64,000 nucleotides of DNA from Nereida sp. (GTDB taxonomy: Bacteria; Pseudomonadota; Alphaproteobacteria; Rhodobacterales; Rhodobacteraceae). Each line of letters opens with the position of its first letter. Positions within the stretch are counted from its first letter, which is position 1. A program made the position numbers and the translations under genes. The notes below the pieces were generated by a model. The model had not been told where the DNA came from. It saw nothing but the letters and a program-made list of their open reading frames with translations, and did not search any database. Location of the stretch: NCBI RefSeq assembly GCF_965655635.1, contig NZ_CBFHHE010000004.1, positions 30,158 to 94,157 on the forward strand. The letters run 5' to 3'. Below are positions 16,247 to 33,415 of this stretch, one piece after another.

Positions 16247-17128
16247 TTAGAGTCCGTTGACGGGGACTTTGAGCATTGGGTTGCCGTCTTTGTCGGTTGG
16301 GACCTCGCCTGCGCGCATGTTTACTTGGAGTGACGGGATGATCAGCTTCGGCATAGCGAGCTGTGCGTCGCGTTCCGTACGGAACTTGATAAAGTCCTCA
16401 CGTGTTTTGTCGCCGCCCACGTGGATGTTGTTGGCCTTCTCATCGGCCACTGTCGTTTCCCACTGAATGTCGCGCCCGTTGGGGCCGTAGTCGTGGCACA
16501 TGAACAAACGCATGTCGTCCGGCAGGGCCAGAACCTTCATGATGCTGTCGTAAAGCTCCTCAGCAGAGCCGCCCGGGAAATCACAGCGCGCTGACCCACC
16601 GTCGGGCATAAACAGGGTGTCGCCCGTAAAGGCCGCGTTGCCCATGACGTGCACCATACAAGCGGGCGTATGGCCGGGCGTATACATGGCAAAGCCCTGC
16701 ATATTGCCGATCATATAGGTGTCGCCGTCCTCAAACAGCGCGTCAAACTGACTGCCGTCCCGTTGGAACTCGGTCCCCTCGTTGAAGACCTTGCCAAACA
16801 CTTCCTGCACAACCGTGATCTTGTGACCAACCCCAATTTTGCCGCCCAGTCTTTGTTGAATATAGGGGGCCGCGCTTAGGTGATCCGCGTGGACATGGGT
16901 CTCGATGATCCATTCCAGCTTCAGCCTGCGCGCCTCAATCTGGCGGATCAGCTCATCGGCGTGATCAAAGGTGATGCGACCGGCTGCGTAGTCGATGTCC
17001 ATAACGCTGTCGATGATCGCGCAGGCATCAGATGTGGGGTCTTTGACGATGTAGCTGATCGTGTTTGTTGCATCATCAAAAAAGGCCTGAACGTCAGGGG
17101 TGATGTCCATGTTTACGGGGTACGTCAT
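16247..17128 (-). CDS. Persulfide (sulfur) dioxygenase, MBL fold (ETHE1/Sdo/Blh-like)
   Basis: ETHVHADH, TPGHT, GDTLFMPDGGSARCDFPGG, MCHDY and PSLQVN motifs; SD AGGAG before MTYPVN. Confidence 0.88.
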   Translation of the reverse strand: MTYPVNMDITPDVQAFFDDATNTISYIVKDPTSDACAIIDSVMDIDYAAGRITFDHADELIRQIEARRLKLEWIIETHVHADHLSAAPYIQQRLGGKIGVGHKITVVQEVFGKVFNEGTEFQRDGSQFDALFEDGDTYMIGNMQGFAMYTPGHTPACMVHVMGNAAFTGDTLFMPDGGSARCDFPGGSAEELYDSIMKVLALPDDMRLFMCHDYGPNGRDIQWETTVADEKANNIHVGGDKTREDFIKFRTERDAQLAMPKLIIPSLQVNMRAGEVPTDKDGNPMLKVPVNGL

Positions 17129-17226
17129 TGTCAATCTCCTTGGTCTCAGGTGCAGGTGGTGGCCGCAGCTTTGCGTCATCCTCAGTGTGTGGGCGGGCAG
17201 TATGCCACCAATGTGAGCGCAGTGTT

Positions 17227-17658
17227 TTATTGAGGCACAGCCGCCGTCGTCATCCGTGTCATCAGGCGTCGCAGGGCAAGTCCAACAACCACCGCAGCTA
17301 TAAACAGAACCACTTCCCAACGCCCCGTTCCAAGGGCGGGAATAGCTGCTCCGGGGCAAAACCCGGCAATGCCCCAGCCGATGCCAAATAACGCAGAGCC
17401 ACCGACAAGGTTGGGATCAATATTGGTTGCGTTTGGTACTTGGAACGTACCGCCAAACAAGGGATGCGCGCGGCGCCACACAGCGCGGTACCCAATCCCT
17501 GTGACAACCAGTGCACCACCCATCACAAAGGCGAGGCTGGGGTCCCATGTGCCTGCAATGTCAAAGAAGTTCAGCACTTTGGCTGGGTTCATCATACCCG
17601 ACAGAGCGATCCCGATACCAAAGACAAGACCTGTGAGGCCAGCAAAAATCAGTTTCAT
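17227..17658 (-). CDS. Half-size YeeE/YedE-family membrane protein
   Basis: GM.NPAKV.NF.D..G.WDPSL.FVM and FGIGWGIAGFCPG motifs. Confidence 0.9.
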   Translation of the reverse strand: MKLIFAGLTGLVFGIGIALSGMMNPAKVLNFFDIAGTWDPSLAFVMGGALVVTGIGYRAVWRRAHPLFGGTFQVPNATNIDPNLVGGSALFGIGWGIAGFCPGAAIPALGTGRWEVVLFIAAVVVGLALRRLMTRMTTAAVPQ

Positions 17659-17661
17659 GGA

Positions 17662-18093
17662 TCAGGCTCCAAATATGTGACGAATGATAAAGACGGTGAT
17701 GCCGGCGGTGGCCATAAAGGTAGGCACTGCAACAAGCGACCGAATGGAAAAGCGCGACAATCCGCAGACCCCGTGACCCGATGTGCACCCAGATCCTAAG
17801 CTTGCGCCAAACCCCACGATGATGCCGCCGATCACAATCATGGTGGGGCTTACTGGCACATCGACAGCGGGCATTGTGCCACTGACCAAAAAGATCACAC
17901 CGGGTGCAGCGATCATGCCAAGGATCATGGCAGCGCGCCACGATGCCTCTGCACGGTTTTGTGCAAAAACCAGACCGGACATGATACCGGTGGCCCCCAG
18001 AATGCGGCCAAGGCCAAGCATCAACATAACGGCGCCAAGACCAATCGCGAGGCCACCGCCAAGGGAGGCAAAAGGAGTGAAAGCTGTTTCCAT
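17662..18093 (-). CDS. Half-size YeeE/YedE-family membrane protein
   Basis: TPF.SLGGG..IG, GRILGATG and GSGCTSGHGVCGLSR.S.RS motifs; alternative start at 18105. Confidence 0.9.
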   Translation of the reverse strand: METAFTPFASLGGGLAIGLGAVMLMLGLGRILGATGIMSGLVFAQNRAEASWRAAMILGMIAAPGVIFLVSGTMPAVDVPVSPTMIVIGGIIVGFGASLGSGCTSGHGVCGLSRFSIRSLVAVPTFMATAGITVFIIRHIFGA

Positions 18094-18095
18094 GA

Positions 18096-18167
18096 TTATG
18101 TCCATCCTGTCTTGATGCCAGCCGCCGTCGTAAAACGTCGCGCCGTGCTGCTTGAATTAATGATCAT
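18096..18167 (-). CDS. Putative 23-aa leader ORF (MIINSSSTARRFTTAAGIKTGWT)
   Basis: Strong SD GAGGAGG 5 nt before the ATG; the stop ends 2 nt before the YeeE ATG. Confidence 0.3.
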   Translation of the reverse strand: MIINSSSTARRFTTAAGIKTGWT

Positions 18168-18584: not shown

Positions 18585-19178
18585 TTAGCCACTTCCAGGG
18601 CGAACCGTCAGACCCAATATGTTCCAGCTTTGCATGCCGCCACGATAGTACCGAATTTTTTCGGCTGGATATCCCGCAGCAATCATACGCCGAGCAGCAG
18701 TGGGTGATTGGCCGCACCACGGACCGTTACAAAATAGAACAACAATCGGAGCCGCATCACTGCAGATCCATCCATCGAAATCAATCTCGCACCCAAGCTC
18801 ATCCAATCTGTCCGCAGCTTGTGTATACGGGATAGAGATTGCGCCCGGTATCGTAGATTTATCGTAGTCAGTGCGTATTCGCCCATCGACCAATACAGCA
18901 TCTTCTCGTTGTAAAAACTCAAGAACTTCCAATTCGCCAACTGGCGCAACACCAGGAGCAGGTATCATTGGTTGGATGCAAAAGTTTGGACATGGCCGTG
19001 ACGTTTGTGTCCAAGGTTCTTGCAACCGTGCATTCGGATCCTGGTTGCGCTTGATATCAACTATGCCATTAGCGGTCTGAACTGTTACGCTCAATAGGTC
19101 TTTGGCAATGCCGACGTCGCCAGCTTGCGCCGAGCCCGCCATCATCACACAACAAACAATTAGTTCTTTTAAACGCAT
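18585..19178 (-). CDS. Exported rhodanese-domain sulfurtransferase at the end of the sox operon
   Basis: Signal peptide (MRLKELIVCCVMMAGSAQA), DGR...Y...TIPGA, active loop FCNGPWCGQS, YRGGMQSW; extra Cys pairs (CPNFC). Confidence 0.85.
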   Translation of the reverse strand: MRLKELIVCCVMMAGSAQAGDVGIAKDLLSVTVQTANGIVDIKRNQDPNARLQEPWTQTSRPCPNFCIQPMIPAPGVAPVGELEVLEFLQREDAVLVDGRIRTDYDKSTIPGAISIPYTQAADRLDELGCEIDFDGWICSDAAPIVVLFCNGPWCGQSPTAARRMIAAGYPAEKIRYYRGGMQSWNILGLTVRPGSG

Positions 19179-19318: not shown

Positions 19319-20584
19319 TTACCCGAACATGTCCGCAGTAATACCAGAGTACCAACCTTCAGATTCGAGGTAGGTTGCCTTACGTACTTCAGAACTCTCA
19401 CCGGTAGATGAGATGAAGCCATCAACTTTGGCGATCTTTTCATCGGTGGCTTCATATGTTGCGCCAACTTTAACACCGTTGTCAGTGTCGATCAGCGACC
19501 AGCATGTGTTAGAGAACTTGGCAGGGAACACACGTGAACCCGTCAGCGCTCCACGAATTGCGTTTGCACATACCTTGGCTTGGCTATTTGCAGAGAACCC
19601 TGACTTTGGCATATCGCCTTGCTGTGAAGCGTCGCCAAGAACATATACGTCTGCATCTGCTTTGCTTGACATGTCAGCAGCATTCACCGGCGCCCAATTG
19701 CCTTGAGTAACGCCTGCAATTTCAGCAATTTTACCGGCCTTCATGGCTGGGATGACGTTGCACACGTCAACATTGACAACCTCTCCATCAATGCTGAGCG
19801 TCATACCATTCGGATCAACTTCGACGTTACCGCCGCCAAATTCTTCACCGACCCAATCGATCATACCGCCATAATTATTTGCCCAACCCTCTTGGAATAG
19901 AGCCATTTTTGAGAATTTCGGCTTAGGGTCTGCAACAATAATTTTTGCAGTTGGGTTATTTGCTTTGAGGTAATGCGCAACCATCGAGACCCGCTCATAT
20001 GGGCCTGGAGGGCAGCGATATGGGTTTGGTGGAGCTACCATCGCGAATACACCACCCTCAGGCATCGCAGCCAACTGAGCTTTCAAAAGCTCGGTTTGAG
20101 AGCCTCCCTTATAAGCATGAGGCATCGCGTTTTGTGCCGTCACATCCCATCCGGCTACTGCGTTATCAACAAAATCGATACCGGGGCTTAACACCAATTT
20201 GTCGTATGTAAGCGTTGCTCCACCGGCCAACGTTACTTGCTTACTATCGCGGTCAACACCAATGGCCCAATCGTGAATAACATTCACGCCAGCGGCAGCC
20301 AAACCACCGTAGCTGTGACCGAGTTCATCCATCTCCTTAAAACCACCGAGGTACAGGTTTGAGAAGAAGCAGGTGTAGTAGGTACGGGTGGGCTCAATGA
20401 GTGTTACATCAATTTCGCCTTTACTATCTTTAGCGATATAACGAGCCGCAGTCGCACCGCCTGCACCACCACCAATTACAACGACGCGCGGCTTGCCGTT
20501 TCCTGCAGCCAACGCCATAGGAGCCGATAAAGCAGCAGACGCCGCCGCTGTGGCACCCAAAAACTTTCTTCTGTTTATAGTCAT
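19319..20584 (-). CDS. soxF: Flavocytochrome c sulfide dehydrogenase flavoprotein
   Basis: TAT RRKFL, VVVIGGGAGG, TCFFSN, PYRCPPGPYER, PKSGFSANSQAK and NTCWS motifs. Confidence 0.94.
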   Translation of the reverse strand: MTINRRKFLGATAAASAALSAPMALAAGNGKPRVVVIGGGAGGATAARYIAKDSKGEIDVTLIEPTRTYYTCFFSNLYLGGFKEMDELGHSYGGLAAAGVNVIHDWAIGVDRDSKQVTLAGGATLTYDKLVLSPGIDFVDNAVAGWDVTAQNAMPHAYKGGSQTELLKAQLAAMPEGGVFAMVAPPNPYRCPPGPYERVSMVAHYLKANNPTAKIIVADPKPKFSKMALFQEGWANNYGGMIDWVGEEFGGGNVEVDPNGMTLSIDGEVVNVDVCNVIPAMKAGKIAEIAGVTQGNWAPVNAADMSSKADADVYVLGDASQQGDMPKSGFSANSQAKVCANAIRGALTGSRVFPAKFSNTCWSLIDTDNGVKVGATYEATDEKIAKVDGFISSTGESSEVRKATYLESEGWYSGITADMFG

Positions 20585-20607
20585 TTCTTATTCCTCCCTT
20601 TATTGCC

Positions 20608-21294
20608 TCAGTTTCCGAGGCTTTTGAAATACGCTGCAAGCGCAGCGATCTCATCATTGGCCAAACGACCAGTGACCATTTGCATCACGGAATTATCGCG
20701 ATACTTTTCTTTGTAAGCGTGCATTGCTGTAACGAAATCTGCCTCGTCCCAGCCTGTAATGCCGGGGATGCCATCATTGGCACCACTGGATAAATGACAT
20801 GTGGTACACTCGGACCCGAGGTACTCACCATAAGCGACGTCACCATCCATAGCCAATATTTCTTGTGATACAGAAAAACCGGCTTCGGTAGCGATCGAGC
20901 TATCAGAATATGTTGTGAGGTACGCTATCACATCTGCGCGCTCCTCAGGTTTTGTTAAGCCCCTAAAACTCATCCGTGTTCCTGGCAGGTATTTTTTCGG
21001 AGCCTCTAGGAAAGCATTAAGAGCCGCTTCATCCCAAACCAGACCGTCAGCAGCGGCATTTTTCAAAGCCTTAGAGTATTTCACACCATCAATATTTGCA
21101 GCAGGTGCGCCAATGATATTGTTGAGGTTGGGGCCGACGCGATTACGCGCATCATCACCCACCATGTGGCAGCTGGCGCATTTCCTATAGACTTTTTTGC
21201 CCGCATCAGGGTCCCCTACACTTTCCGCGTGAGCGGAAAATGTAGAGACCGTCAGCCCAACACATAATCCTATTCTAGAAAGATCCAAAAGCAT
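20608..21294 (-). CDS. soxE: Dihaem cytochrome c
   Basis: CASCH and CTTCH haem motifs, c2-like GPNLN and PGTRM; lies between soxD and soxF. Confidence 0.88.
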   Translation of the reverse strand: MLLDLSRIGLCVGLTVSTFSAHAESVGDPDAGKKVYRKCASCHMVGDDARNRVGPNLNNIIGAPAANIDGVKYSKALKNAAADGLVWDEAALNAFLEAPKKYLPGTRMSFRGLTKPEERADVIAYLTTYSDSSIATEAGFSVSQEILAMDGDVAYGEYLGSECTTCHLSSGANDGIPGITGWDEADFVTAMHAYKEKYRDNSVMQMVTGRLANDEIAALAAYFKSLGN

Positions 21295-21296
21295 GA

Positions 21297-22619
21297 TTAT
21301 TCGCCAAATGTTCGCAAGTATTCGATAACTGCCTGCTGGTCAGATGCTTTCTTCAGGCCGGGAAAAGCCATCTTCGTACCCTTCATATACGATTTTGGTT
21401 TTTCCAAAAAACCGGCCAAGGCTTCATCATCCCAAACCAAACCATCCTCAAGCGCTGCTGTAAACACCTTTGAATATTTGAAGCCGTCGACCGACCCCAT
21501 GGTCCGACCAACAATGCCGTTCAAATGCGGGCCAGAACCATTCTTTGCTCCCTCTCCAACCCCATGGCATGCTCGGCATTTCTTAAATACTTTTTTGCCA
21601 TCATCAATCAACTGTGCTTCCTGATCCTCTGCGGACACCTCTTCAACAATCGCCTTTGTGGCGGCAGGTGCTTTTGGCGCAACAGTGGCTGCAGGGATAA
21701 ATGCTGGGCCAGTGGCCGTGAATGACGGCAGACCATCAATCGTGGCATTGTTCATGACCGAATTGGAACCACCTTCTGGCGGTGTCTCAACCAAGAAGAC
21801 AGACCGCATCGTGACTTCGACTTCTTCTTTACAGTTTTTCATGCATGGTTCAGTGCGCCAAGCCGCGTACTCAGTTTCAGCGCGGTCATCCAAAACAAAA
21901 CCGTCTTCGTTGTGCATTTCGAAGTCAGCAAAATTTTCTTGTGATAGCACAAAATCGTCATCAACCATGTCATTGGAATAAAGAATATAAGCAACGATCG
22001 CGTACGTTTCATCCGCAGTCAGAGTCCCTGCTGCACCGAACGGCATTGAGCGATTGATGTAGTCCCACACAGTAGAAAGATGAGGCCAGTAGGAGCCTAC
22101 TGTTTTGATTGGGTCCTCATCTGCCAGCGTGTCAAAACCTCCCGCCAGCACCGGCCAATTGTCAACACCTTCAGCGAAGTCACCGTGACAGGCGGCACAT
22201 TGATCCGCAAAGACCTCTTCACCTGTGAACACATCGCCAGATCCCACGGGTAACCCGCGTCCATCTGGTAGGACATCCACGTCCCATGCTGCGATTTCCT
22301 CGGACAGCGCTAAACGACCAATTTGATATGTGTCGGCTTTGAGCGGTGCAGGCTCTGCAACGGAGCCAACCTGGGAGGCAGCTGCTGCCAGATTAGTTTC
22401 GACAGTTGTCAAACGATCTTGAAGAGCTTGGACAACTTCATTCTGTGCATCGCTTGCATTCTGTGCCGCTGATGTCCGAGCGTTGGCTTGATCAAGCTGA
22501 ATTTCGAGGGACTCGATAGTGCTCTTGTTGTAATCACGCCCCGCTAGTCCAAATGCGAGCCCAAGTGCTAATGCTGTGCCACTGGCTGCCGGCAGGAAGA
22601 TATTAAGAAACTTCGACAT
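21297..22619 (-). CDS. soxD: Sulfur dehydrogenase cytochrome subunit with extended N-terminus
   Basis: EEIAAWDVDV.PDGRGLP.GSG, CAACH, KTVGSYWP and DYINRSMPF motifs; second haem domain CRACH. Confidence 0.94.
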   Translation of the reverse strand: MSKFLNIFLPAASGTALALGLAFGLAGRDYNKSTIESLEIQLDQANARTSAAQNASDAQNEVVQALQDRLTTVETNLAAAASQVGSVAEPAPLKADTYQIGRLALSEEIAAWDVDVLPDGRGLPVGSGDVFTGEEVFADQCAACHGDFAEGVDNWPVLAGGFDTLADEDPIKTVGSYWPHLSTVWDYINRSMPFGAAGTLTADETYAIVAYILYSNDMVDDDFVLSQENFADFEMHNEDGFVLDDRAETEYAAWRTEPCMKNCKEEVEVTMRSVFLVETPPEGGSNSVMNNATIDGLPSFTATGPAFIPAATVAPKAPAATKAIVEEVSAEDQEAQLIDDGKKVFKKCRACHGVGEGAKNGSGPHLNGIVGRTMGSVDGFKYSKVFTAALEDGLVWDDEALAGFLEKPKSYMKGTKMAFPGLKKASDQQAVIEYLRTFGE

Positions 22620-23865
22620 TCTCGGCTTTCCCTTCTACGTCTACGTACCAAGTTTGGATACAGTTGTTGTGATACACAGCGTTCTCGCCACGTTGTTCTC
22701 TCAGTTGTTCTTTAGTTGGTTGAACGTAGCCGGTGTCATCCATAGCTCGTGCTTGCAAAAGCATCGGCGTACCGTCCCACTCTGTATCTAAGTAGAACCG
22801 CGTCAGCGCTTTTGTGTCACCCTGCTTGCCAAGCCGCGCAGTTTCCCAAGTAATACCGCCATCTTTGGACACGTCTACGCGCGTGATCTGACCGTGACCT
22901 GACCAAGCCAGACCGGAAATAACCATCGGCCCTGCACCATGTGTAACGGGCATTTGCGGGCTCGGAGATGTAATGACAGACTTTGCGTCCATGACCCACG
23001 TCCACTTGCGTGCTACGCCATCCTCGTAAACGTCGGTATATTTTGATGTTTCTTCGCGGCTCTCAACTGCGCGATCAGTGATTTCAATACGGCGCAACCA
23101 CTTAACCCAAAGGTTACCCTCCCAACCAGGTACTACCAAACGCACTGGATATCCGTGCTCCATCCGCAAGGCTTCACCGTTTGCTTTGAAAGCTACCAAA
23201 ACGTCATCCAGCGCTTTTTCCATAGGTATGGAGCGTCCGTTCGATGATGCATCGGCGCCTTCAACATAAACCCATTTATCCAAAGAGATGTCAGCTCCCG
23301 CTTCTTTTAGAAGCGTCCGCAAAGGAACACCGGTGTATTCCATGTTGTGGATCATCCCATGTGTAAATTGTACGCCGTTCAGCTGCGCACCGGCCCACTC
23401 CATACCCGTGTTGGCAGCACATTCACAGAAATACACATGGTTTTCGCGTGGCAACCGCTCAAGATCTTCATAGGTAAACACCAAAGGCCGATCCACAAGA
23501 CCATTGATCATCAAGCGGTAGTCATCTTTGTGAAGTTCAATCGCGCCTGAGTGATGGCGTTCAAACGCACACCCTTGGGGTGTGATTGTGCCTTCAAGCG
23601 CATGAATTGGGGTGAAATTGATAGACGAAATAGGTGAGGCTGTCAGCCATTCAACATTGCGACGAATAACGTCGGACTCGAAGCTAATCGGAAGGCCGTA
23701 AGGTGTCTCATCTACCCCCGCGCCCAGATATGAGGCCCAGTCCTGCAGCTCGGTAATGGCTGGATCAGGTGTTTGGGCACTAACAGTACCAGCAGCTGTG
23801 CCTGCTGCTACTGCAGCACTTCCTCGCAAGAAGGCGCGACGGGAGGTTTTAGACATCTCATCCAT
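22603..23865 (-). CDS. soxC: Sulfur dehydrogenase molybdoprotein subunit
   Basis: TAT SRRAFL, FERHHSG, Moco Cys FCECAAN, GYPVRLVVPGWEGN and SGLAWSG motifs. Confidence 0.96.
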   Translation of the reverse strand: MDEMSKTSRRAFLRGSAAVAAGTAAGTVSAQTPDPAITELQDWASYLGAGVDETPYGLPISFESDVIRRNVEWLTASPISSINFTPIHALEGTITPQGCAFERHHSGAIELHKDDYRLMINGLVDRPLVFTYEDLERLPRENHVYFCECAANTGMEWAGAQLNGVQFTHGMIHNMEYTGVPLRTLLKEAGADISLDKWVYVEGADASSNGRSIPMEKALDDVLVAFKANGEALRMEHGYPVRLVVPGWEGNLWVKWLRRIEITDRAVESREETSKYTDVYEDGVARKWTWVMDAKSVITSPSPQMPVTHGAGPMVISGLAWSGHGQITRVDVSKDGGITWETARLGKQGDTKALTRFYLDTEWDGTPMLLQARAMDDTGYVQPTKEQLREQRGENAVYHNNCIQTWYVDVEGKAENVEVS

Positions 23866-23889
23866 TTATTGAGTTCTCCAATTTTCTAT

Positions 23890-25587
23890 TCAAAGGCCAA
23901 CGACGTCGACGCTGTTGTTTTCTGACACTGTTACAGTACCGAGCTTGCGGATATGGTTCTCGACCACATCCCAGATTTGGGGTCCTTCGGTTCCCTCGTT
24001 CACGCTAGCCCAACCGGCAACAACGTAAGAATGAGACGGATCAATACGCTCGCCGGTAGCGAGTAATGTCATTTCGGAAATGCGCTCACCCTGGGGCTTG
24101 CTAACGTCAATCCGGTAACCGAGGCCACCGGTACGCACCATATCGCCACCCTGTTGATAATAAGGGTCCGGATTAAAGATGTTGTCGGCGACGTCTTCCA
24201 AAATCACTTTTAGAAATTCACCTGTCATTTCACTACGATACGCCTGACCGTAAGACATCGAAGTGACGCCAAACAAATCTTCGCGCGTGATATCCTGACC
24301 AGGCACAAGCGATGGCCCCCACCGCACGCCCGGACTTAGCGCAATCTGCGCATCACGTTCGCTGAGCAATGCGTCACAAATCAAATCATCCCAAGTTCCA
24401 TTGAAGTTCCCACGACGATACAAAAGGCTATCAGTACGTCCTAAAACTTCAGTCAGCTCAGGCAAATAGGGAGCGCGCTCGGCATCAATGATCGCAGCCA
24501 CTTCAGCATCTGGGGCAATTACATCAGAAAAAATTGGTATCAGTTTGGTGCGGTACCCCATCATCCGGCCATCTCGAATATCAAGATCGACACGGCTCAC
24601 AAACTTACCATTAGAGCCTGATGGCAATACGATCGTACCACCAACGACTACAGGTTCAGGTAGCGCATCATGTGTGTGACCAGATAGAATAACGTCGATG
24701 CCAGGAACTACGCTGGCCATCTTCTTGTCCACATCAAAACCGTTGTGGCTTAGAACAACAACGCATTCCGCACCTTCGGCGCGTACCTTCTCAACCATCT
24801 TCGCCATGTTTTCATCGCGAATACCAAACGAGAACTCTGGGAACATCCAGCCTGGATTGGCAATTGGCATGTATGGGAATGCTTGACCGATTACAGCAAT
24901 CTTCGTTCCACCACGCTCAAAAATTTTATAGGGTGGAAACAGATTAGATGGCTCGTCCCATTCAGAATCAAAGATGTTCTGCCCGAGCGCCGCAAAAGGA
25001 AGACTTTCGACAAGCTCGGTCACGCGCTCAGTGCCCAAAGTAAATTCCCAGTGGAACGTCATCGCGTCAGGCTCTAGCGCGTTCATGACATTCACCATGT
25101 CTTGCGCCTGTGTCATGTGCGTTGTGTAGGAGCCGTGCCAAGTATCGCCACCGTCCAACAAGATAGCATCGGGACGATCAGCACGAATAGCTTTCACAAC
25201 CGTCGCCACACGGTCCAAGCCGCCAACACGTCCGTACCCTTGTGCCAGAGACGAAAAATCGCCTGAACTCAGGGCATAGTGGCTGGGACTGCCGTCCTCG
25301 ATGCCGTACATTCTACGGAAATCAGCACCTGTGACGTGCGGAACCGCACCGGCATTGGCCCCAACCCCGATATTCACCGAAGGCTCGCGAAAATAGATTG
25401 GTTTCAGTTGTCCATGAATATCTGTGATGTGGATGAGTGAAACGTTCCCGTAGGTATCAAACTCGAGTAGCTGATCCTGACTGAGCCGCTGTTGGGCAGC
25501 CAAACGTGCCCAGTTCCCAAAGCCAGAGCCACCAACGATGGCTGAGGCCGCCATACCAACTTGCAAAAAATCTCGACGTGAAATCAT
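23890..25587 (-). CDS. soxB: Thiosulfohydrolase
   Basis: TAT SRRDFL, HITDIHGQL.P.YFREPS, DGGDTW, HWEF, SGHTHD, RRGNF and DPYYQQGGDM motifs. Confidence 0.96.
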   Translation of the reverse strand: MISRRDFLQVGMAASAIVGGSGFGNWARLAAQQRLSQDQLLEFDTYGNVSLIHITDIHGQLKPIYFREPSVNIGVGANAGAVPHVTGADFRRMYGIEDGSPSHYALSSGDFSSLAQGYGRVGGLDRVATVVKAIRADRPDAILLDGGDTWHGSYTTHMTQAQDMVNVMNALEPDAMTFHWEFTLGTERVTELVESLPFAALGQNIFDSEWDEPSNLFPPYKIFERGGTKIAVIGQAFPYMPIANPGWMFPEFSFGIRDENMAKMVEKVRAEGAECVVVLSHNGFDVDKKMASVVPGIDVILSGHTHDALPEPVVVGGTIVLPSGSNGKFVSRVDLDIRDGRMMGYRTKLIPIFSDVIAPDAEVAAIIDAERAPYLPELTEVLGRTDSLLYRRGNFNGTWDDLICDALLSERDAQIALSPGVRWGPSLVPGQDITREDLFGVTSMSYGQAYRSEMTGEFLKVILEDVADNIFNPDPYYQQGGDMVRTGGLGYRIDVSKPQGERISEMTLLATGERIDPSHSYVVAGWASVNEGTEGPQIWDVVENHIRKLGTVTVSENNSVDVVGL

Positions 25588-25818
25588 TCGATGAATTCTT
25601 TCTATAAGCTATATGAATATTGGAATGTCATTTCGTGCACATTTCCATATTCAGGGTTGGTTGCGGATCAATTGGAGCAATTGGCTAAAGCGGTTTCGGA
25701 AGACCGTCTGGTTTTACCGGCTGGTCTTAAAAACAAATGTGAGAACCAAAGGTGTCGCGGCCTTAAACCGTAACTAAGTGCTGAAAATTAATTCAGGCAC
25801 CCTCTGGCGCAAATCTCA

Positions 25819-26148
25819 CTAAGAAACGCTGACCTTCTTTTTCGCCTCATAGATATCGCCATCGTCGTCGTACCATTTGAAAGTGAACTCACCACTTTCT
25901 GGGACAATCGCTTCAAACTGAAAATACGGGTTCGTAGAAATGGCCGGCTCAAGTGCGACATCAATCACATTTTCGCCGTTAAATTCGGCCGTAAAGCGGT
26001 TGATAATCGACCTCGGAATAAGGTTACCGTCATCATCCTTACGCTGACCGCTTTCCATTTTGTGGCTGATCAGTGTCTTGATTGTAATTGCCTCACCAGC
26101 TTCAGCTGTTTTGGGTACTTTCACCCGTGGTTTCACACCAGATGCCAT
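25819..26148 (-). CDS. soxZ: Sulfur carrier subunit Z
   Basis: IKTLISHKMESGQRKD, AISTNPYF.F and W.DDDG motifs; SD AGGAGA before MASGVKPRVK (109 aa). Confidence 0.96.
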   Translation of the reverse strand: MASGVKPRVKVPKTAEAGEAITIKTLISHKMESGQRKDDDGNLIPRSIINRFTAEFNGENVIDVALEPAISTNPYFQFEAIVPESGEFTFKWYDDDGDIYEAKKKVSVS

Positions 26149-26210
26149 ATTGTATCTCCTAGGTATATTGTCAGCACCGCTGACAGTATGAATATTTGAA
26201 GTGCAGCTAA

Positions 26211-26648
26211 TTAGCCGCCACAACCACCGATGGTCACTTTGACATTTGCCTTAGCCATCTGGAATGAACCGTCTTCCATCTCTGCAACAGCCACGACGTT
26301 CTGCGTTGTGGATAGTCGGATTCGTGTAGACGCTGTGCGCGACGCACTCAGCGCACCAAACTTGAAGGTGGCAACGCTTGGAGTTGGGTTCCCATCAGCG
26401 AACAAAGTGATCGCAACAGCACCCGGAGCATCTATTTCTACGGGAACAGTGTTGCCATTCTCAGCAATTTCAGGGGCCGTTATGGAAATGCCACCTTCGA
26501 CAGCACCTGCGCCGCCTGTAAGAGCTGCAATTGCATCATCTGTCAGGCTTGCAAGGGCCGGCGTACCTACAACAGCGGTCATCGCCAATGCGCAACCACC
26601 CAAAGAAAGGATCGAGCGCCTGTTAAACTGTCTAGTATGGGTAGTCAT
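26211..26648 (-). CDS. soxY: Sulfur carrier subunit Y
   Basis: TAT-like NRRSIL, APEIAENGNTVPV and intact swinging arm VKVTIGGCGG. Confidence 0.96.
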   Translation of the reverse strand: MTTHTRQFNRRSILSLGGCALAMTAVVGTPALASLTDDAIAALTGGAGAVEGGISITAPEIAENGNTVPVEIDAPGAVAITLFADGNPTPSVATFKFGALSASRTASTRIRLSTTQNVVAVAEMEDGSFQMAKANVKVTIGGCGG

Positions 26649-27015
26649 GTCGGTAGGTTTCCCTTCCTGTAGTTAAAAAGTGAGAGACGGTGAATTCGCA
26701 ACAGCGCGCTTGATCAAAGAGGCGTTGGGCGGGTGTTACAACCGGATGCCTTCTATGGCCAGTGGAGATACAAACAGTCGATGACGCATATTGCAGCATT
26801 ATTAGTCGCCCCTCCCAAGCCGATTCAGTTGCCGATTTATGGTATGCTAATGGACACCAACACATTCACGCAACAACAAATTCAATTAAAAGAATTGTTA
26901 TATTTGTTAGCAGGTGCAGAAAAATAAGTAATATTTTGCGCATAATGCCAATCTGGAAAGGCCAAACAGACTACTGGACTATACAACACTTAGCCACAAT
27001 GCCGCAGCGCAGCAG

Positions 27016-27167
27016 TCAGCTGTAAGGATATAAATCGGGTAAAATGAGCTTCAAAAGCCCCAGTCCAAAGTCATTCAGCAATCGCGTAGGTTGGCTTACA
27101 GGGCCGCAAACCATCTTACATGTAATAAGCCAGGCAGCCAAAACTCCGACGTTTTTGTTACACGCAT
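27016..27167 (-). pseudogene. Possible decayed 5' remnant of soxW
   Basis: An ATG 14 nt after the soxV stop, behind AGGGTGA. With +1 in the A5 run it reads MRVTKNVGVLAAWLIT...LNDFGL, signal-peptide-like and vaguely like the SoxW LGDDGL. No CxxC is left. Confidence 0.2.
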
Positions 27168-27181
27168 TCACCCTACGCTCA

Positions 27182-27922
27182 CTAGCCGAGCGTGCTAAAC
27201 CAGGGCACATAATCGAGCATCATTTGCGCAATAGCCCCAATCTGATCGGTCCCCACAAGAATTCCGAATGTAATCAGGCATAAACCAGTGACCTTTTCGA
27301 CTACCCCAAGATATGCCCTAAACCGCAAGATCCATGATGTGAACTGATCCACAAATAGCGATACGAGAACAAATGGCATGGTCATGCCCGCTCCGTAAAC
27401 AAATAATAACCATGCTCCCTCTGCAGCAGTATCTTGCGCGGCAGCCGTAAATAAAATTGCGGCAAGGACTGGCCCCACACATGGGGTCCAACCAAAAGCA
27501 AATGCCAACCCCACAACATAAGCGCCTACAAATCTTGAAGGATCAATCAAACGGGTTTCAATTCTGACCTGGCGGTGGAACGCAGCGATTTGAACGGTAC
27601 CCAAAAAATGCAGACCCATTACAATTAATAGGCACGAAGCCACCAATCGAATTACATCAAACCAATCTTGCACCAGCACACCCAGAGTGCTGGCACTCGC
27701 CCCCAAAGCGACAAATACTGTAATGATACCAAGACCGAAAAAGATAGAAGAAGTTACTGCCCGCGCCCGTCCAGAGATAATCGTGTTCTCGCTGGCTTGA
27801 GCTTCGTTAAGACGTGAGCCGGCAAAATAACTCACATAAAATGGCACTATCGGCAAAACGCAGGGGGACAAAAAAGACAAAAGGCCCGCTGTAAGGGCGC
27901 CAACTGTAGTCACCTCGAACAT
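27182..27922 (-). CDS. soxV: CcdA/DsbD-like membrane thiol-disulfide transporter
   Basis: SFLSPCVLP and FGWTPCVGPVL (both catalytic Cys); position divergent from soxS; SD GGAG before MFEV. Confidence 0.88.
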   Translation of the reverse strand: MFEVTTVGALTAGLLSFLSPCVLPIVPFYVSYFAGSRLNEAQASENTIISGRARAVTSSIFFGLGIITVFVALGASASTLGVLVQDWFDVIRLVASCLLIVMGLHFLGTVQIAAFHRQVRIETRLIDPSRFVGAYVVGLAFAFGWTPCVGPVLAAILFTAAAQDTAAEGAWLLFVYGAGMTMPFVLVSLFVDQFTSWILRFRAYLGVVEKVTGLCLITFGILVGTDQIGAIAQMMLDYVPWFSTLG

Positions 27923-28005
27923 TTTAACTCCGTCACTCACTTGAGCAATTTGCATAAAGGCATATATTGGAGGCATGAGAGACGTCAACGAAAGGGCGCT
28001 CCAGC

Positions 28006-28368
28006 ATGTTCAGAGCGATTTTTACAGCGACGTTACTTTGTATTCCCTGCACCGCATTTGCAGAGACATTGTTACTTATGGCTGAGAGGGACGGATGTTA
28101 TTGGTGTGATCGATGGGATGCTGAGATAGCAGAAATTTATCCAAAAACTTCTGAAGGAAAAACTGCTCGCCTTGAACGCTTTGATATCAAAACGGGAGCG
28201 CGAGACGTAGAACTTGAGAAGTCTGTCCGTTTTACACCCACTTTTATTCTTGTTAATGACGGTAAGGAAGTTGGCCGTATCGAAGGCTATCCCGGTGAAG
28301 ACTTCTTTTGGGCAATGCTTTCGATGATGCTCAAAGATGCTGATATACCTTTTGAACAAGCGAGTTGA
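28006..28368 (+). CDS. soxS: Periplasmic thioredoxin-like protein
   Basis: Signal peptide, GCYWC, FTPTF and RIEGYPGEDFFW motifs. Confidence 0.88.
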   Translation: MFRAIFTATLLCIPCTAFAETLLLMAERDGCYWCDRWDAEIAEIYPKTSEGKTARLERFDIKTGARDVELEKSVRFTPTFILVNDGKEVGRIEGYPGEDFFWAMLSMMLKDADIPFEQAS

Positions 28369-28757
28369 TCCCTATGGATAGTCAAACTGTCACATCCAAC
28401 ATCCGCACTGATGAAGCAAAGAGTAAACTGCCTGTGTTTGACATAAATATGTGCCCCGAGGACATGGAGAAAATGGTTGCTAACGCCGAACAGGCATCAA
28501 GCTTCCTAAAGGCGATCAGTCACGAAGGTAGATTGATGATTTTGTGTCATCTGGCATTGGGCGAAAGGTCTGTAACAGAGCTTGAAGAGCTTTTATCTGC
28601 TCGGCAGGCAAGCGTTTCACAACAGCTAACTCGGCTCCGCTTTGAAGGCCTGGTAAAGCCTCGTAGAGATGGCAAGGCTATTTACTATAGCTTGACAGAT
28701 GACCGCCCTCGGCAAATCATAGAAGTAGTATATGATCTGTTTTGCAAAAACAGCTAG
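28365..28757 (+). CDS. soxR: ArsR/BigR-type sulfane-sensing repressor
   Basis: LKAISHEGRLMILCHL, SQQLTRLR and C-terminal LFC (two Cys as in BigR/SqrR/SoxR); start at 28365 or 28374. Confidence 0.88.
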   Translation: MIPMDSQTVTSNIRTDEAKSKLPVFDINMCPEDMEKMVANAEQASSFLKAISHEGRLMILCHLALGERSVTELEELLSARQASVSQQLTRLRFEGLVKPRRDGKAIYYSLTDDRPRQIIEVVYDLFCKNS

Positions 28758-28793
28758 CCAAACTTCTCGCCCAAGTTTGGTCGGGAGGATTAG

Positions 28794-29849
28794 ATGTCTA
28801 TGGAAGTTCTTGGAGAAGCAAACACAATAGCTTTGATAGGCCTACTGGGCGGAATAGCCCTTGGGTTAGCCGCAAGGCTGGGCCGCTTTTGCACTTTAGG
28901 TGCAATTGAGGATTATCTCTATGGAGCTGACCCCAGGCGTATGGGAATGTGGGGTGTCTCTGTTGGAGTAGCAATTATCGGAACACAGGTGTTGTTAGGT
29001 GCCGCTTTTGTCGAAGGCAGCTACGTCGCATATCTATCACGCGCCTGGAACCCGCTCAGCACAGTCATAGGTGGGCTGCTTTTTGGATACGGCATGGCCC
29101 TGACGGGCAACTGCGGCTATGGAGCGCTCGCACGACTAGGTGGTGGTGACCTACGGGCATTTGTCATTGTGCTGGTTATGGGGCTTTCCGCATATTTCGT
29201 CATGTCAGGTCCTCTCGCCCATTTGCGAGTAATGTTGTTTCCCGTGGTACAAAGCTCAGACACAAGCCAAGGGTTGGCCCAGTTGTTGAATGGTTTTGGC
29301 GTAGAACCTTGGGTGGTTGGTATCGTAGCAGGGACGGTTATTGTTCTAGCATCGCTTCGAACTGCACGAGGCAAACCTTTTCAAAGCTACGCGTTATGGG
29401 GAGTGCTCGTGGGCCTTGCCATCACATCCGGCTGGGTGGGCACACATTGGGTGGCGACAGTCGGCTTTGACGGCGAACCTATCCGCACACATACTTTTGC
29501 GGCACCCGTTGGAGATACAATCTTCTATAGCATGACAGCATCCGGAAATACTGTTTCGTTTAGCGTAGGTTCCGTCATGGGCGTCATTATTGGAGCCGCA
29601 TTTGGTTCAATGTTCAAAAAGCAATTCCGCTGGGAGGCGTGCGAAGATCCGCGAGAGCTGAAACGACAGATTTTTGGAGCCGCGCTAATGGGTGTCGGCG
29701 CAATATTGGCGGTAGGGTGTAGCGTGGGTCAGGGTATCGCTGCGTTTTCAGTCTTAGCATACAGTGCACCGGTTACACTTATCGCAATCTTTTGTGGCGC
29801 GGCATTTGGTCTGAGGCAACTAATCACAGGCTTTAAAGTCGCTCTCTAG
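28794..29849 (+). CDS. soxT: Full-length YeeE/YedE sulfur transporter
   Basis: RFCTLG, GNCGYG and GCSVGQG Cys motifs; third gene of the soxSRT arrangement. Confidence 0.85.
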   Translation: MSMEVLGEANTIALIGLLGGIALGLAARLGRFCTLGAIEDYLYGADPRRMGMWGVSVGVAIIGTQVLLGAAFVEGSYVAYLSRAWNPLSTVIGGLLFGYGMALTGNCGYGALARLGGGDLRAFVIVLVMGLSAYFVMSGPLAHLRVMLFPVVQSSDTSQGLAQLLNGFGVEPWVVGIVAGTVIVLASLRTARGKPFQSYALWGVLVGLAITSGWVGTHWVATVGFDGEPIRTHTFAAPVGDTIFYSMTASGNTVSFSVGSVMGVIIGAAFGSMFKKQFRWEACEDPRELKRQIFGAALMGVGAILAVGCSVGQGIAAFSVLAYSAPVTLIAIFCGAAFGLRQLITGFKVAL

Positions 29850-30135: not shown

Positions 30136-30894
30136 TTAAACCTTGATAGCTCTATTCAACTTTTTCATCTCTGTCCGGAAATCACGTAATTTTTTCTCAT
30201 CGTTTCCGTATGCATTGATGTCGAGTAGGTAGGGGCTCATTTCAGCAGTCGCTCTGGCCATCTCGCGTAAATCTGTGACTTCGGCCTGTGAGATAACAGC
30301 AGCGTTTATGTTGCGTAGCCCCGCCATCTGACTGGTCGCCTCAGTATATCCGGACATGTAAATGCGGGCGTTATCGTTTTCAATTATCACCCTGATGTCT
30401 GTTTGGTCACTACTTTTAGACACGCCAGCGGTTGCGGTGAACTCCAGCCCATCAACTGGCTGACTAGCTCCAAATTCGGACGACGTGATGACATTGTTTG
30501 AAATCATTAACGGTAGTTCATTGATTACGGCTTGCGGCGCAAGTACGACTATATTGCGGCGTAGCATCCCGATCATGGTTCGCACACTGAGGTGGTCCGG
30601 GTGTGCCCGTGTCAGCACCACAACATCCGGTGAGCCATAGGCAGCGTATTGAATTTGGGAACCAGTAGGGTCGATCAAAATGGTGGTGTTGGCCCAAACA
30701 ATTGTGACGTTTGCACCCGATGTCGTGACAATCTGTAGAAGCCTATCAAGCACAGAAGTCTGCTGCGCTTGATAGATGTGTGAGACGCTTGTGCCGTGTT
30801 CAATGGCTCGTTGTTCTGCTGTGCCCGCAAGTGTCGTGAGCATGAACACAACGAATGCTAGGCCAAGCTTAGAAAGCATATTGAACAACGGCAT
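30136..30894 (-). CDS. Exported MBL-fold protein with degenerate metal site
   Basis: Signal-like N-terminus; ILIDP, LTRAHPDHL (vs THxHxDH) and IYMSGYT (vs GDT). Confidence 0.7.
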   Translation of the reverse strand: MPLFNMLSKLGLAFVVFMLTTLAGTAEQRAIEHGTSVSHIYQAQQTSVLDRLLQIVTTSGANVTIVWANTTILIDPTGSQIQYAAYGSPDVVVLTRAHPDHLSVRTMIGMLRRNIVVLAPQAVINELPLMISNNVITSSEFGASQPVDGLEFTATAGVSKSSDQTDIRVIIENDNARIYMSGYTEATSQMAGLRNINAAVISQAEVTDLREMARATAEMSPYLLDINAYGNDEKKLRDFRTEMKKLNRAIKV

Positions 30895-32026: not shown

Positions 32027-33415
32027 GTGGACACACTTCTTCTTTCTCGTATTCAGTTTGGTGCGAATATCTCGTTTCACATTCTGTTTCCAACAATCAC
32101 CATCGCATTAGGATGGGTATTGTTGTTCTTTAAGGTGCGCTTCACCGCGACCGCAGAGCAAAAGTGGATGGACGGCTATATGTTCTGGGTGAAGGTATTT
32201 GCATTATCTTTCGCCATGGGTGTCGTGTCCGGTATCACGATGTCGTTCCAATTCGGCACAAACTGGCCAGGCTTCATGGAAACCGTTGGCAATGTGGCGG
32301 GCCCTCTACTGGCCTATGAAATCATGACTGCCTTTTTCCTTGAGGCGGTATTTCTTGGAATTATGCTGTTTGGGGCCTCACGGGTGAAACCTTGGGTGCA
32401 CACCTTGGCCACGTTTTTAGTCGCCTTCGGGACAACAATGTCGACGTTCTGGATCATCGTTTTGAATTCATGGATGCACACCCCCCAAGGCTATGAGGTG
32501 ATCGACGGCGTTGTGCACGCAACCAACTGGCTTGAGATCATCTTCAACCCGTCAATGCCTTATCGCTTTATTCACATGATGCTGGCGTCTGGACTGACGG
32601 TTGCCTTTTTGGTGGCGGGTATTTCGGCCCTGCGGATGTTGTGGGGCGACCACGGCGAGGACGTAAAGACTGCGCTTCGCGTTGGTGTCATCGCTGGTGC
32701 TGGACTTATCCCCCTACAAATCCTGGCTGGTGATTTTCACGGACTAAATACTCTCGAATATCAGCCAGCAAAAGTAGCTGCGATGGAAGGCAACTGGGAG
32801 ATGGGCCCGAATGTGCCGTTGGTGCTTTTTGCTCTGCCCGACCAGGAGGCGCGTGAAAACCGCTTTGAGATTGCTGTTCCTAACGGTGCCTCACTCATCT
32901 TGACCCACAAAGCGGACGGTGTCGTGCCAGGTCTGAATGACTTTGTCACTGAGGACGGTGAGGTGTTGCACCCACGCGTGGCGCCTGTGTTTTTCAGCTT
33001 CCGTATCATGGTGGGCACAGGCATGGCGATGCTGTTACTGTCATGGGGTGGTGTTGTGATGCTGCGCAAATACGGCGCCGAGGCGATGCCAAAGACGGCT
33101 CTCTATGCATTCTGTGCCATGAGCTTTAGCGGCTGGATCGCGACATTAGCCGGTTGGTACACTACTGAAATCGGACGGCAGCCATGGCTTGTCCAAGGCG
33201 TGCTCACCACCAAAGACGCCGTAAGCGACGTACCAAGCGCAATGGTTCTAAGTACACTGATTGGGTACCTTGTGGTCTATGCGGTGCTAGTCGTGGCTTA
33301 TATTGGTGTCATCACGTATCTCGCGCGCAAGGCGACCCGTGGCGAGCCATTCTCATCGCGTACTTACCCGCGTCGTGGCGAAGCGGTAGCATCCAACCTG
33401 CAACCAGGAGAATAA
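32027..33415 (+). CDS. cydA: Cytochrome bd quinol oxidase subunit I (short Q-loop, CioA-like)
   Basis: HILFP, FQFGTNW, RFIHM, QPAKVAAMEG, FRIMVG and EIGRQPW motifs. Confidence 0.95.
   Translation: MDTLLLSRIQFGANISFHILFPTITIALGWVLLFFKVRFTATAEQKWMDGYMFWVKVFALSFAMGVVSGITMSFQFGTNWPGFMETVGNVAGPLLAYEIMTAFFLEAVFLGIMLFGASRVKPWVHTLATFLVAFGTTMSTFWIIVLNSWMHTPQGYEVIDGVVHATNWLEIIFNPSMPYRFIHMMLASGLTVAFLVAGISALRMLWGDHGEDVKTALRVGVIAGAGLIPLQILAGDFHGLNTLEYQPAKVAAMEGNWEMGPNVPLVLFALPDQEARENRFEIAVPNGASLILTHKADGVVPGLNDFVTEDGEVLHPRVAPVFFSFRIMVGTGMAMLLLSWGGVVMLRKYGAEAMPKTALYAFCAMSFSGWIATLAGWYTTEIGRQPWLVQGVLTTKDAVSDVPSAMVLSTLIGYLVVYAVLVVAYIGVITYLARKATRGEPFSSRTYPRRGEAVASNLQPGE

Follow-up and report, generated by a model that had tools for sequence, protein, structure and literature searches.

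The Sox cluster of the Paracoccus pantotrophus type has the order soxSRT <> soxVWXYZABCDEF(GH). A two-locus Sox system, soxABXY1Z1 and soxCDY2Z2 with duplicated SoxYZ, is described for Campylobacterota (PMC12936845). Furthermore, there is a truncated, SoxCD-less Sox class, in which SoxXA-YZ-B is combined with rDsr or sHdr. Here, we analyse a sox cluster in a metagenome-assembled genome (MAG) of Nereida sp. The window, i.e. the whole stretch of 64,000 nt that was analysed (positions 30,158 to 94,157 of contig NZ_CBFHHE010000004.1), carries the genes soxT-R-S <> soxV-[533 bp]-soxYZ-[231 bp]-soxBCDEF and lacks soxW, soxX and soxA. Most likely, the selective loss of these three genes is best explained by redundancy with an island-borne soxVWXYZA locus, as it is present in a sister species. 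This means, the Sox system is probably a two-site system. A real loss of the second site from the genome of the window is unproven, given that this genome is incomplete.

With the Paracoccus pantotrophus type, the window cluster shares gene order, orientation and a motif from the soxW-soxX intergenic region. It differs by the absence of soxW, soxX and soxA, by more diverged soxV and soxS genes, and by rhodanese-like, PmpAB-like and Blh-like persulfide dioxygenase (PDO) genes that replace soxG and soxH. Compared to canonical roseobacter clusters, SoxB is 79-86% identical and SoxC up to 90%. SoxB identities of 84-86% to Tateyamaria, Shimia, Roseovarius and related MAGs place the organism in the roseobacter group of the Rhodobacterales. 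SoxYZ, SoxB and SoxCD of the complete Kelly-Friedrich Sox pathway are encoded in the window; SoxAX was not found in the MAG. The SoxCD-less class does not fit either: both are Sox subsets retained under selection, but the opposite part is gone in the window, where soxCD is present and soxXA is missing.

A sox cluster lacking soxW, soxX and soxA

The genome of the window (G000) is a MAG with a total length of 2.22 Mb, 68 contigs and a completeness of 94.9%. It was compared with the genome of a sister species from the same genus (G001; 2.9 Mb, 100% complete). The soxV-soxY gap (533 bp, 26649..27181) is the canonical site of soxW and soxX, the soxZ-soxB gap (231 bp, 25588..25818) that of soxA. 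In essentially all of 80 related SoxB loci, these intervals measure about 1200 bp (soxW plus soxX) and about 1000 bp (soxA), respectively, so that the window truly deviates from the usual arrangement. The sole exceptions among the 80 loci are two Gemmobacter MAGs. None of the six frames of the two gaps contains a CxxCH motif. Profile hidden Markov models, built from about 70 sequences each of SoxW, SoxX and SoxA and run against six-frame translations, detected no remnants of the three genes in the gaps of the window or of G001, and simple scans for promoters and terminators yielded no more in the gaps than expected from shuffled sequence. Two small open reading frames (ORFs) in the soxV-soxY gap (77 and 64 aa) were rejected as genes: they have no family matches and are disrupted in G001.

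The search was extended to the whole genome using the profiles for SoxA (TIGR04484), SoxX (TIGR04485) and the cytochrome domain of SoxA and TsdA (PF21342). In the 68 contigs of the 95%-complete MAG, no match above cut-off was obtained (here and below, NCBIfam equivalog cut-offs were applied; 110 bits for SoxA, 61 bits for SoxX). Tblastn searches of the MAG with SoxW, SoxX and SoxA from seven roseobacter clusters returned only weak general cytochrome c similarity, that of SoxX to SoxE. As a stand-in for SoxX, SoxE was discarded, since it scores 28 bits on the SoxX model and is, therefore, under the cut-off. The long form of SoxD was rejected as a replacement cytochrome because the same form is present in canonical relatives that have soxXA (loci L006, L007 and L011).

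An assembly artefact that collapsed soxW, soxX and soxA out of the contig has a single point in its favour, the fact that the source is a MAG. This explanation is refuted and can be practically dismissed. Misassembly at the gaps, which the original prediction had named as a possible refutation, is excluded by G001 and by at least four independent assemblies, in all of which the V-Y and Z-B junctions are the same: ERZ23491764 (with an 83-kb scaffold), ERZ23491286, ERR15116867 and ERR4674077. In addition, exact copies of the window proteins SoxB, SoxC and SoxY are encoded on contigs of independent ENA and Logan assemblies with identical junctions.

All genes from soxV to soxF are located on the minus strand, and soxS, soxR and soxT on the plus strand. 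Across the 11 sox genes, neither frameshifts nor stops nor truncations were found. The carrier protein SoxY (26211..26648) ends with VTIGGCGG and reaches 140 bits on TIGR04488 (cut-off for the GGCGG type 125). SoxZ (25819..26148) scores 104 bits on TIGR04490 (cut-off 76). The thiosulfohydrolase SoxB (23890..25587) aligns over its full length with 816 bits on TIGR04486 (cut-off 550), and SoxC, the molybdenum subunit of the sulfane dehydrogenase (22603..23865), scores 584 bits on TIGR04555 (cut-off 420). SoxD (21297..22619; 440 aa in its long form) and SoxE (20608..21294) are both dihaem cytochromes c with two CxxCH motifs. SoxF (19319..20584) is a flavoprotein of the flavocytochrome c sulfide dehydrogenase (FCSD) type with the domains FCSD_central (PF21706, 158 bits), FCSD-flav_bind (PF09242, 73 bits) and Pyr_redox_2. 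With the flavoprotein and its dihaem partner, SoxEF has the domains of an FCSD, whose activity is predicted. SoxV (27182..27988) is a DsbD/CcdA-type membrane thiol-disulfide transporter (DsbD_TM, 68 bits) with both DsbD-type cysteines; its true start is probably at 27922, yielding a protein of 246 aa as called in other assemblies. SoxS (28006..28368) is a periplasmic thioredoxin-like protein with a CYWC motif and a weak Thioredoxin_2 match, which is syntenic with soxS in about 69 loci. SoxR (28365..28757) is an ArsR/BigR-type repressor (HTH_5; BigR-like 99 bits, ArsR/SmtB subfamily 80 bits), and SoxT (28794..29849) is a YeeE/TsuA-like sulfur transporter (PF04143, 185 bits; TsuA-like in NCBIfam). 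The gene map of the original prediction agrees base for base with the ORF listing and the family scans. Its statements that both gaps, at exactly these lengths, lack a CxxCH ORF, that the cluster lacks only soxW, soxX and soxA and that the other genes are intact hold as well.

The predicted purifying selection on the retained genes was also found. Ratios of non-synonymous to synonymous substitution rates (dN/dS) were calculated pairwise between window and G001 according to Nei and Gojobori, a measure that is blind to recent loss. They amount to 0.017-0.051 for soxC (0.017), soxB (0.019), soxF (0.035), soxY, soxD and soxZ, to 0.065 for soxT, to 0.13 for soxR and soxE, to 0.26 for soxS and to 0.34 for soxV, the least constrained gene of the cluster. 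Derived amino-acid changes, polarised with outgroups, are symmetric with 28 in the genome of the window and 34 in G001. The retained genes are as constrained in G000 as in the SoxXA-bearing G001. This pattern is compatible with an island that is still present, with a very recent loss and with a SoxAX-independent function, and does not discriminate between them. The fast evolution of soxV and soxS (27182-28368) may reflect relaxed constraint after the loss of soxW or a takeover by a second soxV-soxW pair.

A putative control element has been retained, too. The 15-nt motif TGAATTTGTTGTTGC (26870..26884, minus strand) is located inside the soxV-soxY gap. With up to three mismatches allowed, about 40 of 70 scanned loci have it in their V-Y interval, and it is also present in G001 and in another genome, G391. 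In canonical clusters, it resides between soxW and soxX, e.g. some 80 bp before soxX in Shimia (L008). TGAATTTGTTGTTGC is likely a promoter or SoxR operator, which would now control the expression of soxYZBCDEF.

A second sox locus in the sister species

On contig C25, G001 carries the same cluster without soxW, soxX and soxA. It is 93.8% identical to that of the window at the nt level and has gaps of 534 and 234 bp. The V-Y gaps of both genomes are 87.8% identical with five gapped positions, the coding regions 92-97% without gaps. Given that G001 has this cluster as well, with gap sequences 88% identical to those of the window, the deletions of soxW, soxX and soxA are shared by descent and occurred before the two species split.

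In addition, G001 has a second sox locus. Contig C38 and the start of contig C7 share an identical overlap of about 520 bp, and the joined locus reads soxV'-soxW-soxX-soxY'-soxZ'-soxA-hemA-rhodanese-SoxH-like metallo-hydrolases, followed by a transposase fragment. On its other side, a tyrosine-integrase island and a tRNA-Arg gene are found. The locus encodes SoxV' (249 aa), SoxW (198 aa), SoxX (151 aa, 94 bits), SoxY' (138 aa, with GGCGG) and SoxA (275 aa, 215 bits). Thus, the Sox system of G001 is split over two loci, each of them with its own soxV and soxYZ. At least nine public assemblies encode island-type SoxA (92-99% identical), and the gene order is soxX-Y'-Z'-A-hemA in every case. The hemA gene that follows island soxA in each case is a full-length 5-aminolevulinate synthase paralogue (664 bits; L087:1498-2715 on C38 of G001 and L109:1074-2291). 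It is 65-68% identical at the nt level to two other hemA-like genes of the genome and could provide haem for SoxXA.

The soxYZ copies of the two loci are closely related. Homology between island soxY'Z' and main soxYZ extends from just past the SoxY signal peptide to near the end of soxZ. Over 736 nt, island and window differ at 22 positions (97.0% identity), island and G001 main locus at 49, and the two main loci at 34. The mature SoxY proteins of the two loci share about 98% identity, while their signal peptides are unrelated. The whole segment from mature SoxY to SoxZ is 96-97% identical between the island locus and the main cluster; of the flanking genes, SoxV and SoxV' are 56% identical, and the others have no counterpart. 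A second island variant from another metagenome displays the same pattern of soxYZ identity. From these distances, we infer gene conversion between soxY'Z' and main soxYZ in loci that resided in one genome, dating from around the G000/G001 split or from a later time.

Accordingly worded, the preferred explanation reads as follows: quite probably, the window carries the main locus of a Sox system that became distributed over two loci in the common ancestor of G000 and G001. The ancestor would have held both loci, which exchanged sequence. The second locus would have made soxW, soxX and soxA of the main cluster redundant, so that they could be lost there, a case of complementary loss after duplication or acquisition. 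SoxXA supplied in trans would couple thiosulfate to the SoxY cysteine, SoxB would remove sulfate, SoxCD would oxidise the sulfane sulfur, and SoxB would release the second sulfate, while SoxEF would feed in sulfide. In this manner, SoxB, SoxCD and SoxEF of the main locus would complete the canonical oxidation to sulfate. Redundancy with the second locus explains why both subunits of a heterodimer are gone from two sites without a change of function. The re-purposed, SoxAX-independent pathway that had been deduced from this two-site loss is, therefore, not needed.

A similar situation was found in the two Gemmobacter MAGs, whose clusters also lack soxW, soxX and soxA. There, another site carries soxXA next to a second copy each of soxYZ and soxF. 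This locus, soxZ-soxY <> soxF'-soxX-soxA (L093:4015-7925, L094:3654-7563), encodes proteins 30-44% identical to the roseobacter ones. It complements the main cluster and represents an independent example of a split Sox system. The discovery of soxA and soxX elsewhere in the genome had been named as a refutation of the SoxAX-independent pathway. Such genes exist in G001 and in the two Gemmobacter MAGs, but were not found in the MAG of the window. Like the Campylobacterota, G001 and the Gemmobacter MAGs possess a SoxXA module and a SoxCD module, each with its own soxYZ. Unlike in the Campylobacterota, soxB is located beside soxCD rather than soxXA, the XA module of G001 lies in a mobile-island region, and the soxYZ copies of G001 are no diverged paralogues but nearly identical, apparently through gene conversion. 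Moreover, no XA module was detected in the MAG that contains the window.

Distribution in the family and neighbouring genes

To place the cluster in the family, 400 genus representatives, each at least 95% complete, were surveyed. SoxB is present in 240 and SoxA in 239 of them, and 10 have SoxB without SoxA. Two of these ten were set aside: G155 is fragmented and has SoxX, and in G247 soxB is a pseudogene. The G247 locus (C44:257247-260305) is a decaying cluster with an intact soxX and a soxB that lacks the N-terminal third and contains an in-frame TAG. The other eight (G000, G013, G015, G023, G067, G096, G340 and G391) have neither SoxA nor SoxX above cut-off nor the PF21342 domain, and amount to about 3% of the SoxB-positive genus representatives. 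G023 has one SoxX-like match with 47 bits, under the cut-off of 61, and in G096 the examined locus comprises soxYZB only. G391, with 5.0 Mb in two contigs, has the same soxTRS <> V-YZ-BCDEF layout with short gaps, in which fragments of SoxX and SoxA are still detectable (E values of 7e-4 and 9e-5 in a small search). G391, G013, G015, G023, G067 and G340 have the same composition as the window and an independent origin; G391 keeps remnants of the lost genes, whereas the window has none.

In the SoxB tree, at least five independent origins of clusters without soxW, soxX and soxA are required. The SoxB branches in SoxAX-free genomes are mostly long (0.25-3.2 compared to a median of 0.12), which is compatible with relaxed constraint or a new function. 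Whatever the case in G000, a SoxYZ-B-CD state free of SoxAX and TsdA is real and recurrent in the order. The composition, which the original prediction had not matched to any characterised system, is shared by other genera; literature searches for Sox systems without SoxAX yielded no characterised example. The well-assembled SoxAX-free genomes are a result separate from the window and the more interesting by-product of the analysis. In the same tree, the cluster of the window is not sister to that of its congener G002: it groups with Tateyamaria-like clusters, and that of G002 with Amylibacter- and Roseovarius-like ones. Such a topology suggests that sox clusters were replaced horizontally within the genus.

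Downstream of soxF, on the minus strand, a periplasmic rhodanese-like protein is encoded (18585..19178), with a rhodanese domain, the active-site loop CNGPWC and a signal-peptide-like N-terminus starting from MRLKEL. In a survey of about 90 loci, this gene was found, besides the window, only in G001. It is followed on the same strand by genes for two half-size YeeE/PmpAB-like membrane proteins (17662-18105 and 17227-17658; PF04143, DUF6691) and a Blh-like PDO (16247-17359; Lactamase_B). With 359 bits, the C-terminal PDO part of the latter stays under the cut-off of 625, since the protein lacks the rhodanese part. Together, the genes between 16247 and 19178 resemble a sulfide/persulfide module of the BigR-regulon type that has been fused to the sox cluster. 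The PmpAB-like and Blh-like PDO neighbours suggest that sulfide and persulfide are handled around the cluster. On the other side, 2 kb from soxT, subunit I of a cytochrome bd oxidase is encoded (32027-33415, 512 bits). Cytochrome bd oxidases are generally sulfide-tolerant, which may matter in a neighbourhood that handles sulfide.

The missing island and alternative explanations

If the preferred explanation also holds for the present state of G000, the island should have escaped assembly or binning. In other metagenomes, island variants are 93-96% identical to that of G001 at the nt level and always lie on contigs of 1.2-5.2 kb, so that a MAG could easily miss the island. Where coverage was recorded (two ENA contigs), it is low. 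The surroundings of the island are rich in short dispersed repeats, at which contigs end. One of them, a repeat of about 84 bp with copies that are 86-96% identical, is located at or near contig ends of the island regions in both genomes (C38:78-161, C36:198-270 and C34:16385-16468 in G000, C7:8040-8123 and others in G001), and probably causes the assembly breaks there.

Several findings weigh against the split system. Island sequence was detected on none of the 68 contigs of the MAG, even though the bin includes contigs of only 1.1 kb. The two known island junctions are present in the assembly of G000 and adjoin other genes: the tRNA-Arg-side segment a 774-aa autotransporter-like gene, and the tRNA-Phe-side segment, which borders the island in another variant, two small unrelated ORFs. 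In addition, a third congener, G003, is devoid of any sox genes, so that sox appears dispensable and is being lost in the genus, and well-assembled relatives free of SoxA, SoxX and TsdA exist.

Judged by eye, the 774-aa predicted surface protein (L096:250-2574, on C38 of G000) has DUF285-like and cadherin-like repeats and an autotransporter-like C-terminus. At the tRNA-Phe locus of G000 (C50:7164-8801, C36:362-1324), att-like partial tRNA copies and flank elements bracket differing small cargo modules. This locus resembles an array of integrated elements, and one of the flank elements borders the sox island in other genomes. A candidate empty island site on C50, where both flank-like sequences are present in the same order around two unrelated ORFs next to tRNA-Phe, was rejected, because these flanks are dispersed repeats that also occur on C36 and at which contigs end, so that the site could not be closed. 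Overlaps between contig ends of G000 did not provide a usable assembly graph. An attempt to tie the island to the species via shared samples failed: island-type SoxA and exact copies of the window proteins never came from one run, and the nearest link is between the runs ERR4674057 and ERR4674077, which belong to a single accession series. That the island exists in G000 and was not assembled or binned is quite possible; that the population has really lost it is somewhat favoured.

If the loss is genuine, two explanations have to be considered. According to the first, which is rather unlikely, soxXA is gone genome-wide and the remaining genes form a working SoxAX-independent pathway, in which SoxY is loaded otherwise, i.e. 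by sulfide via SoxEF, by sulfane from the adjacent rhodanese-like protein, or by tetrathionate or polysulfide directly on the SoxY thiol, before SoxCD and SoxB release sulfate. This would agree with the absence of SoxA, SoxX, SoxW and TsdA domains from the MAG, with other genes occupying both island junctions, with the motif kept upstream of soxY, and with strong purifying selection and an evolution no faster than in G001. The pairwise dN/dS cannot reveal a recent loss, though, and the MAG is 95% complete, with an island that belongs to a poorly assembling, flexible region. The lineage-specific rhodanese-like gene after soxF would offer a sulfane donor, but G001 shares both this gene and the cluster and does have SoxXA, so that neither feature is a specific replacement. 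From the family come the same composition in at least five independent origins, the intact genes in seven other genomes free of SoxA, SoxX and PF21342 that are at least 96% complete, and the gap remnants of G391, which document a real loss in place; the long SoxB branches of such genomes are equally well explained by relaxed constraint. Biochemically, tetrathionate can load SoxY chemically in vitro (PMC5336275). With purified Paracoccus enzymes, by contrast, the oxidation of persulfurated SoxYZ was still SoxAX-dependent (PMC5336275). This dependence speaks against the suggested loading of SoxY by sulfide or polysulfide. It is doubtful that the population, like at least six other Rhodobacterales genera, is truly free of SoxA, SoxX and TsdA and keeps soxYZ-B-CD-EF as such a working periplasmic pathway.

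The other explanation, a true and recent island loss that left the main cluster as a non-functional remnant not yet decayed, is improbable. It would fit the gradient within the genus, from G002 with a canonical cluster via G001 with a split system and G000 with the main locus only to G003 without sox, as well as the small genome of G000 (2.2 Mb compared to 2.9-3.1 Mb), the weaker constraint on soxV (0.34) and soxS (0.26), and the existence of decaying clusters in the family such as that of G247, whose soxB pseudogene has an in-frame stop. A decaying remnant is at odds with 11 genes free of frameshifts, stops and truncations, with derived substitutions that are not in excess compared to G001, and with exact protein copies that recur across several samples.

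Genome-based studies of the marine sulfur cycle usually infer thiosulfate oxidation from the presence of soxB or from how complete one cluster is. A roseobacter lineage can divide its Sox system between a core locus and a poorly assembling mobile island. Therefore, MAG-based calls of an incomplete Sox system can be artefacts, and thiosulfate use can differ between strains. Gene conversion between the soxYZ copies would clearly indicate that the two loci are functionally coupled. The approximately 3% of SoxB-positive genera with intact SoxYZ-B-CD and neither SoxAX nor TsdA have a role that current biochemistry does not explain and that can be tested in isolates. If true, the SoxAX-independent pathway would be a repeatedly arisen, uncharacterised variant of the Sox system.

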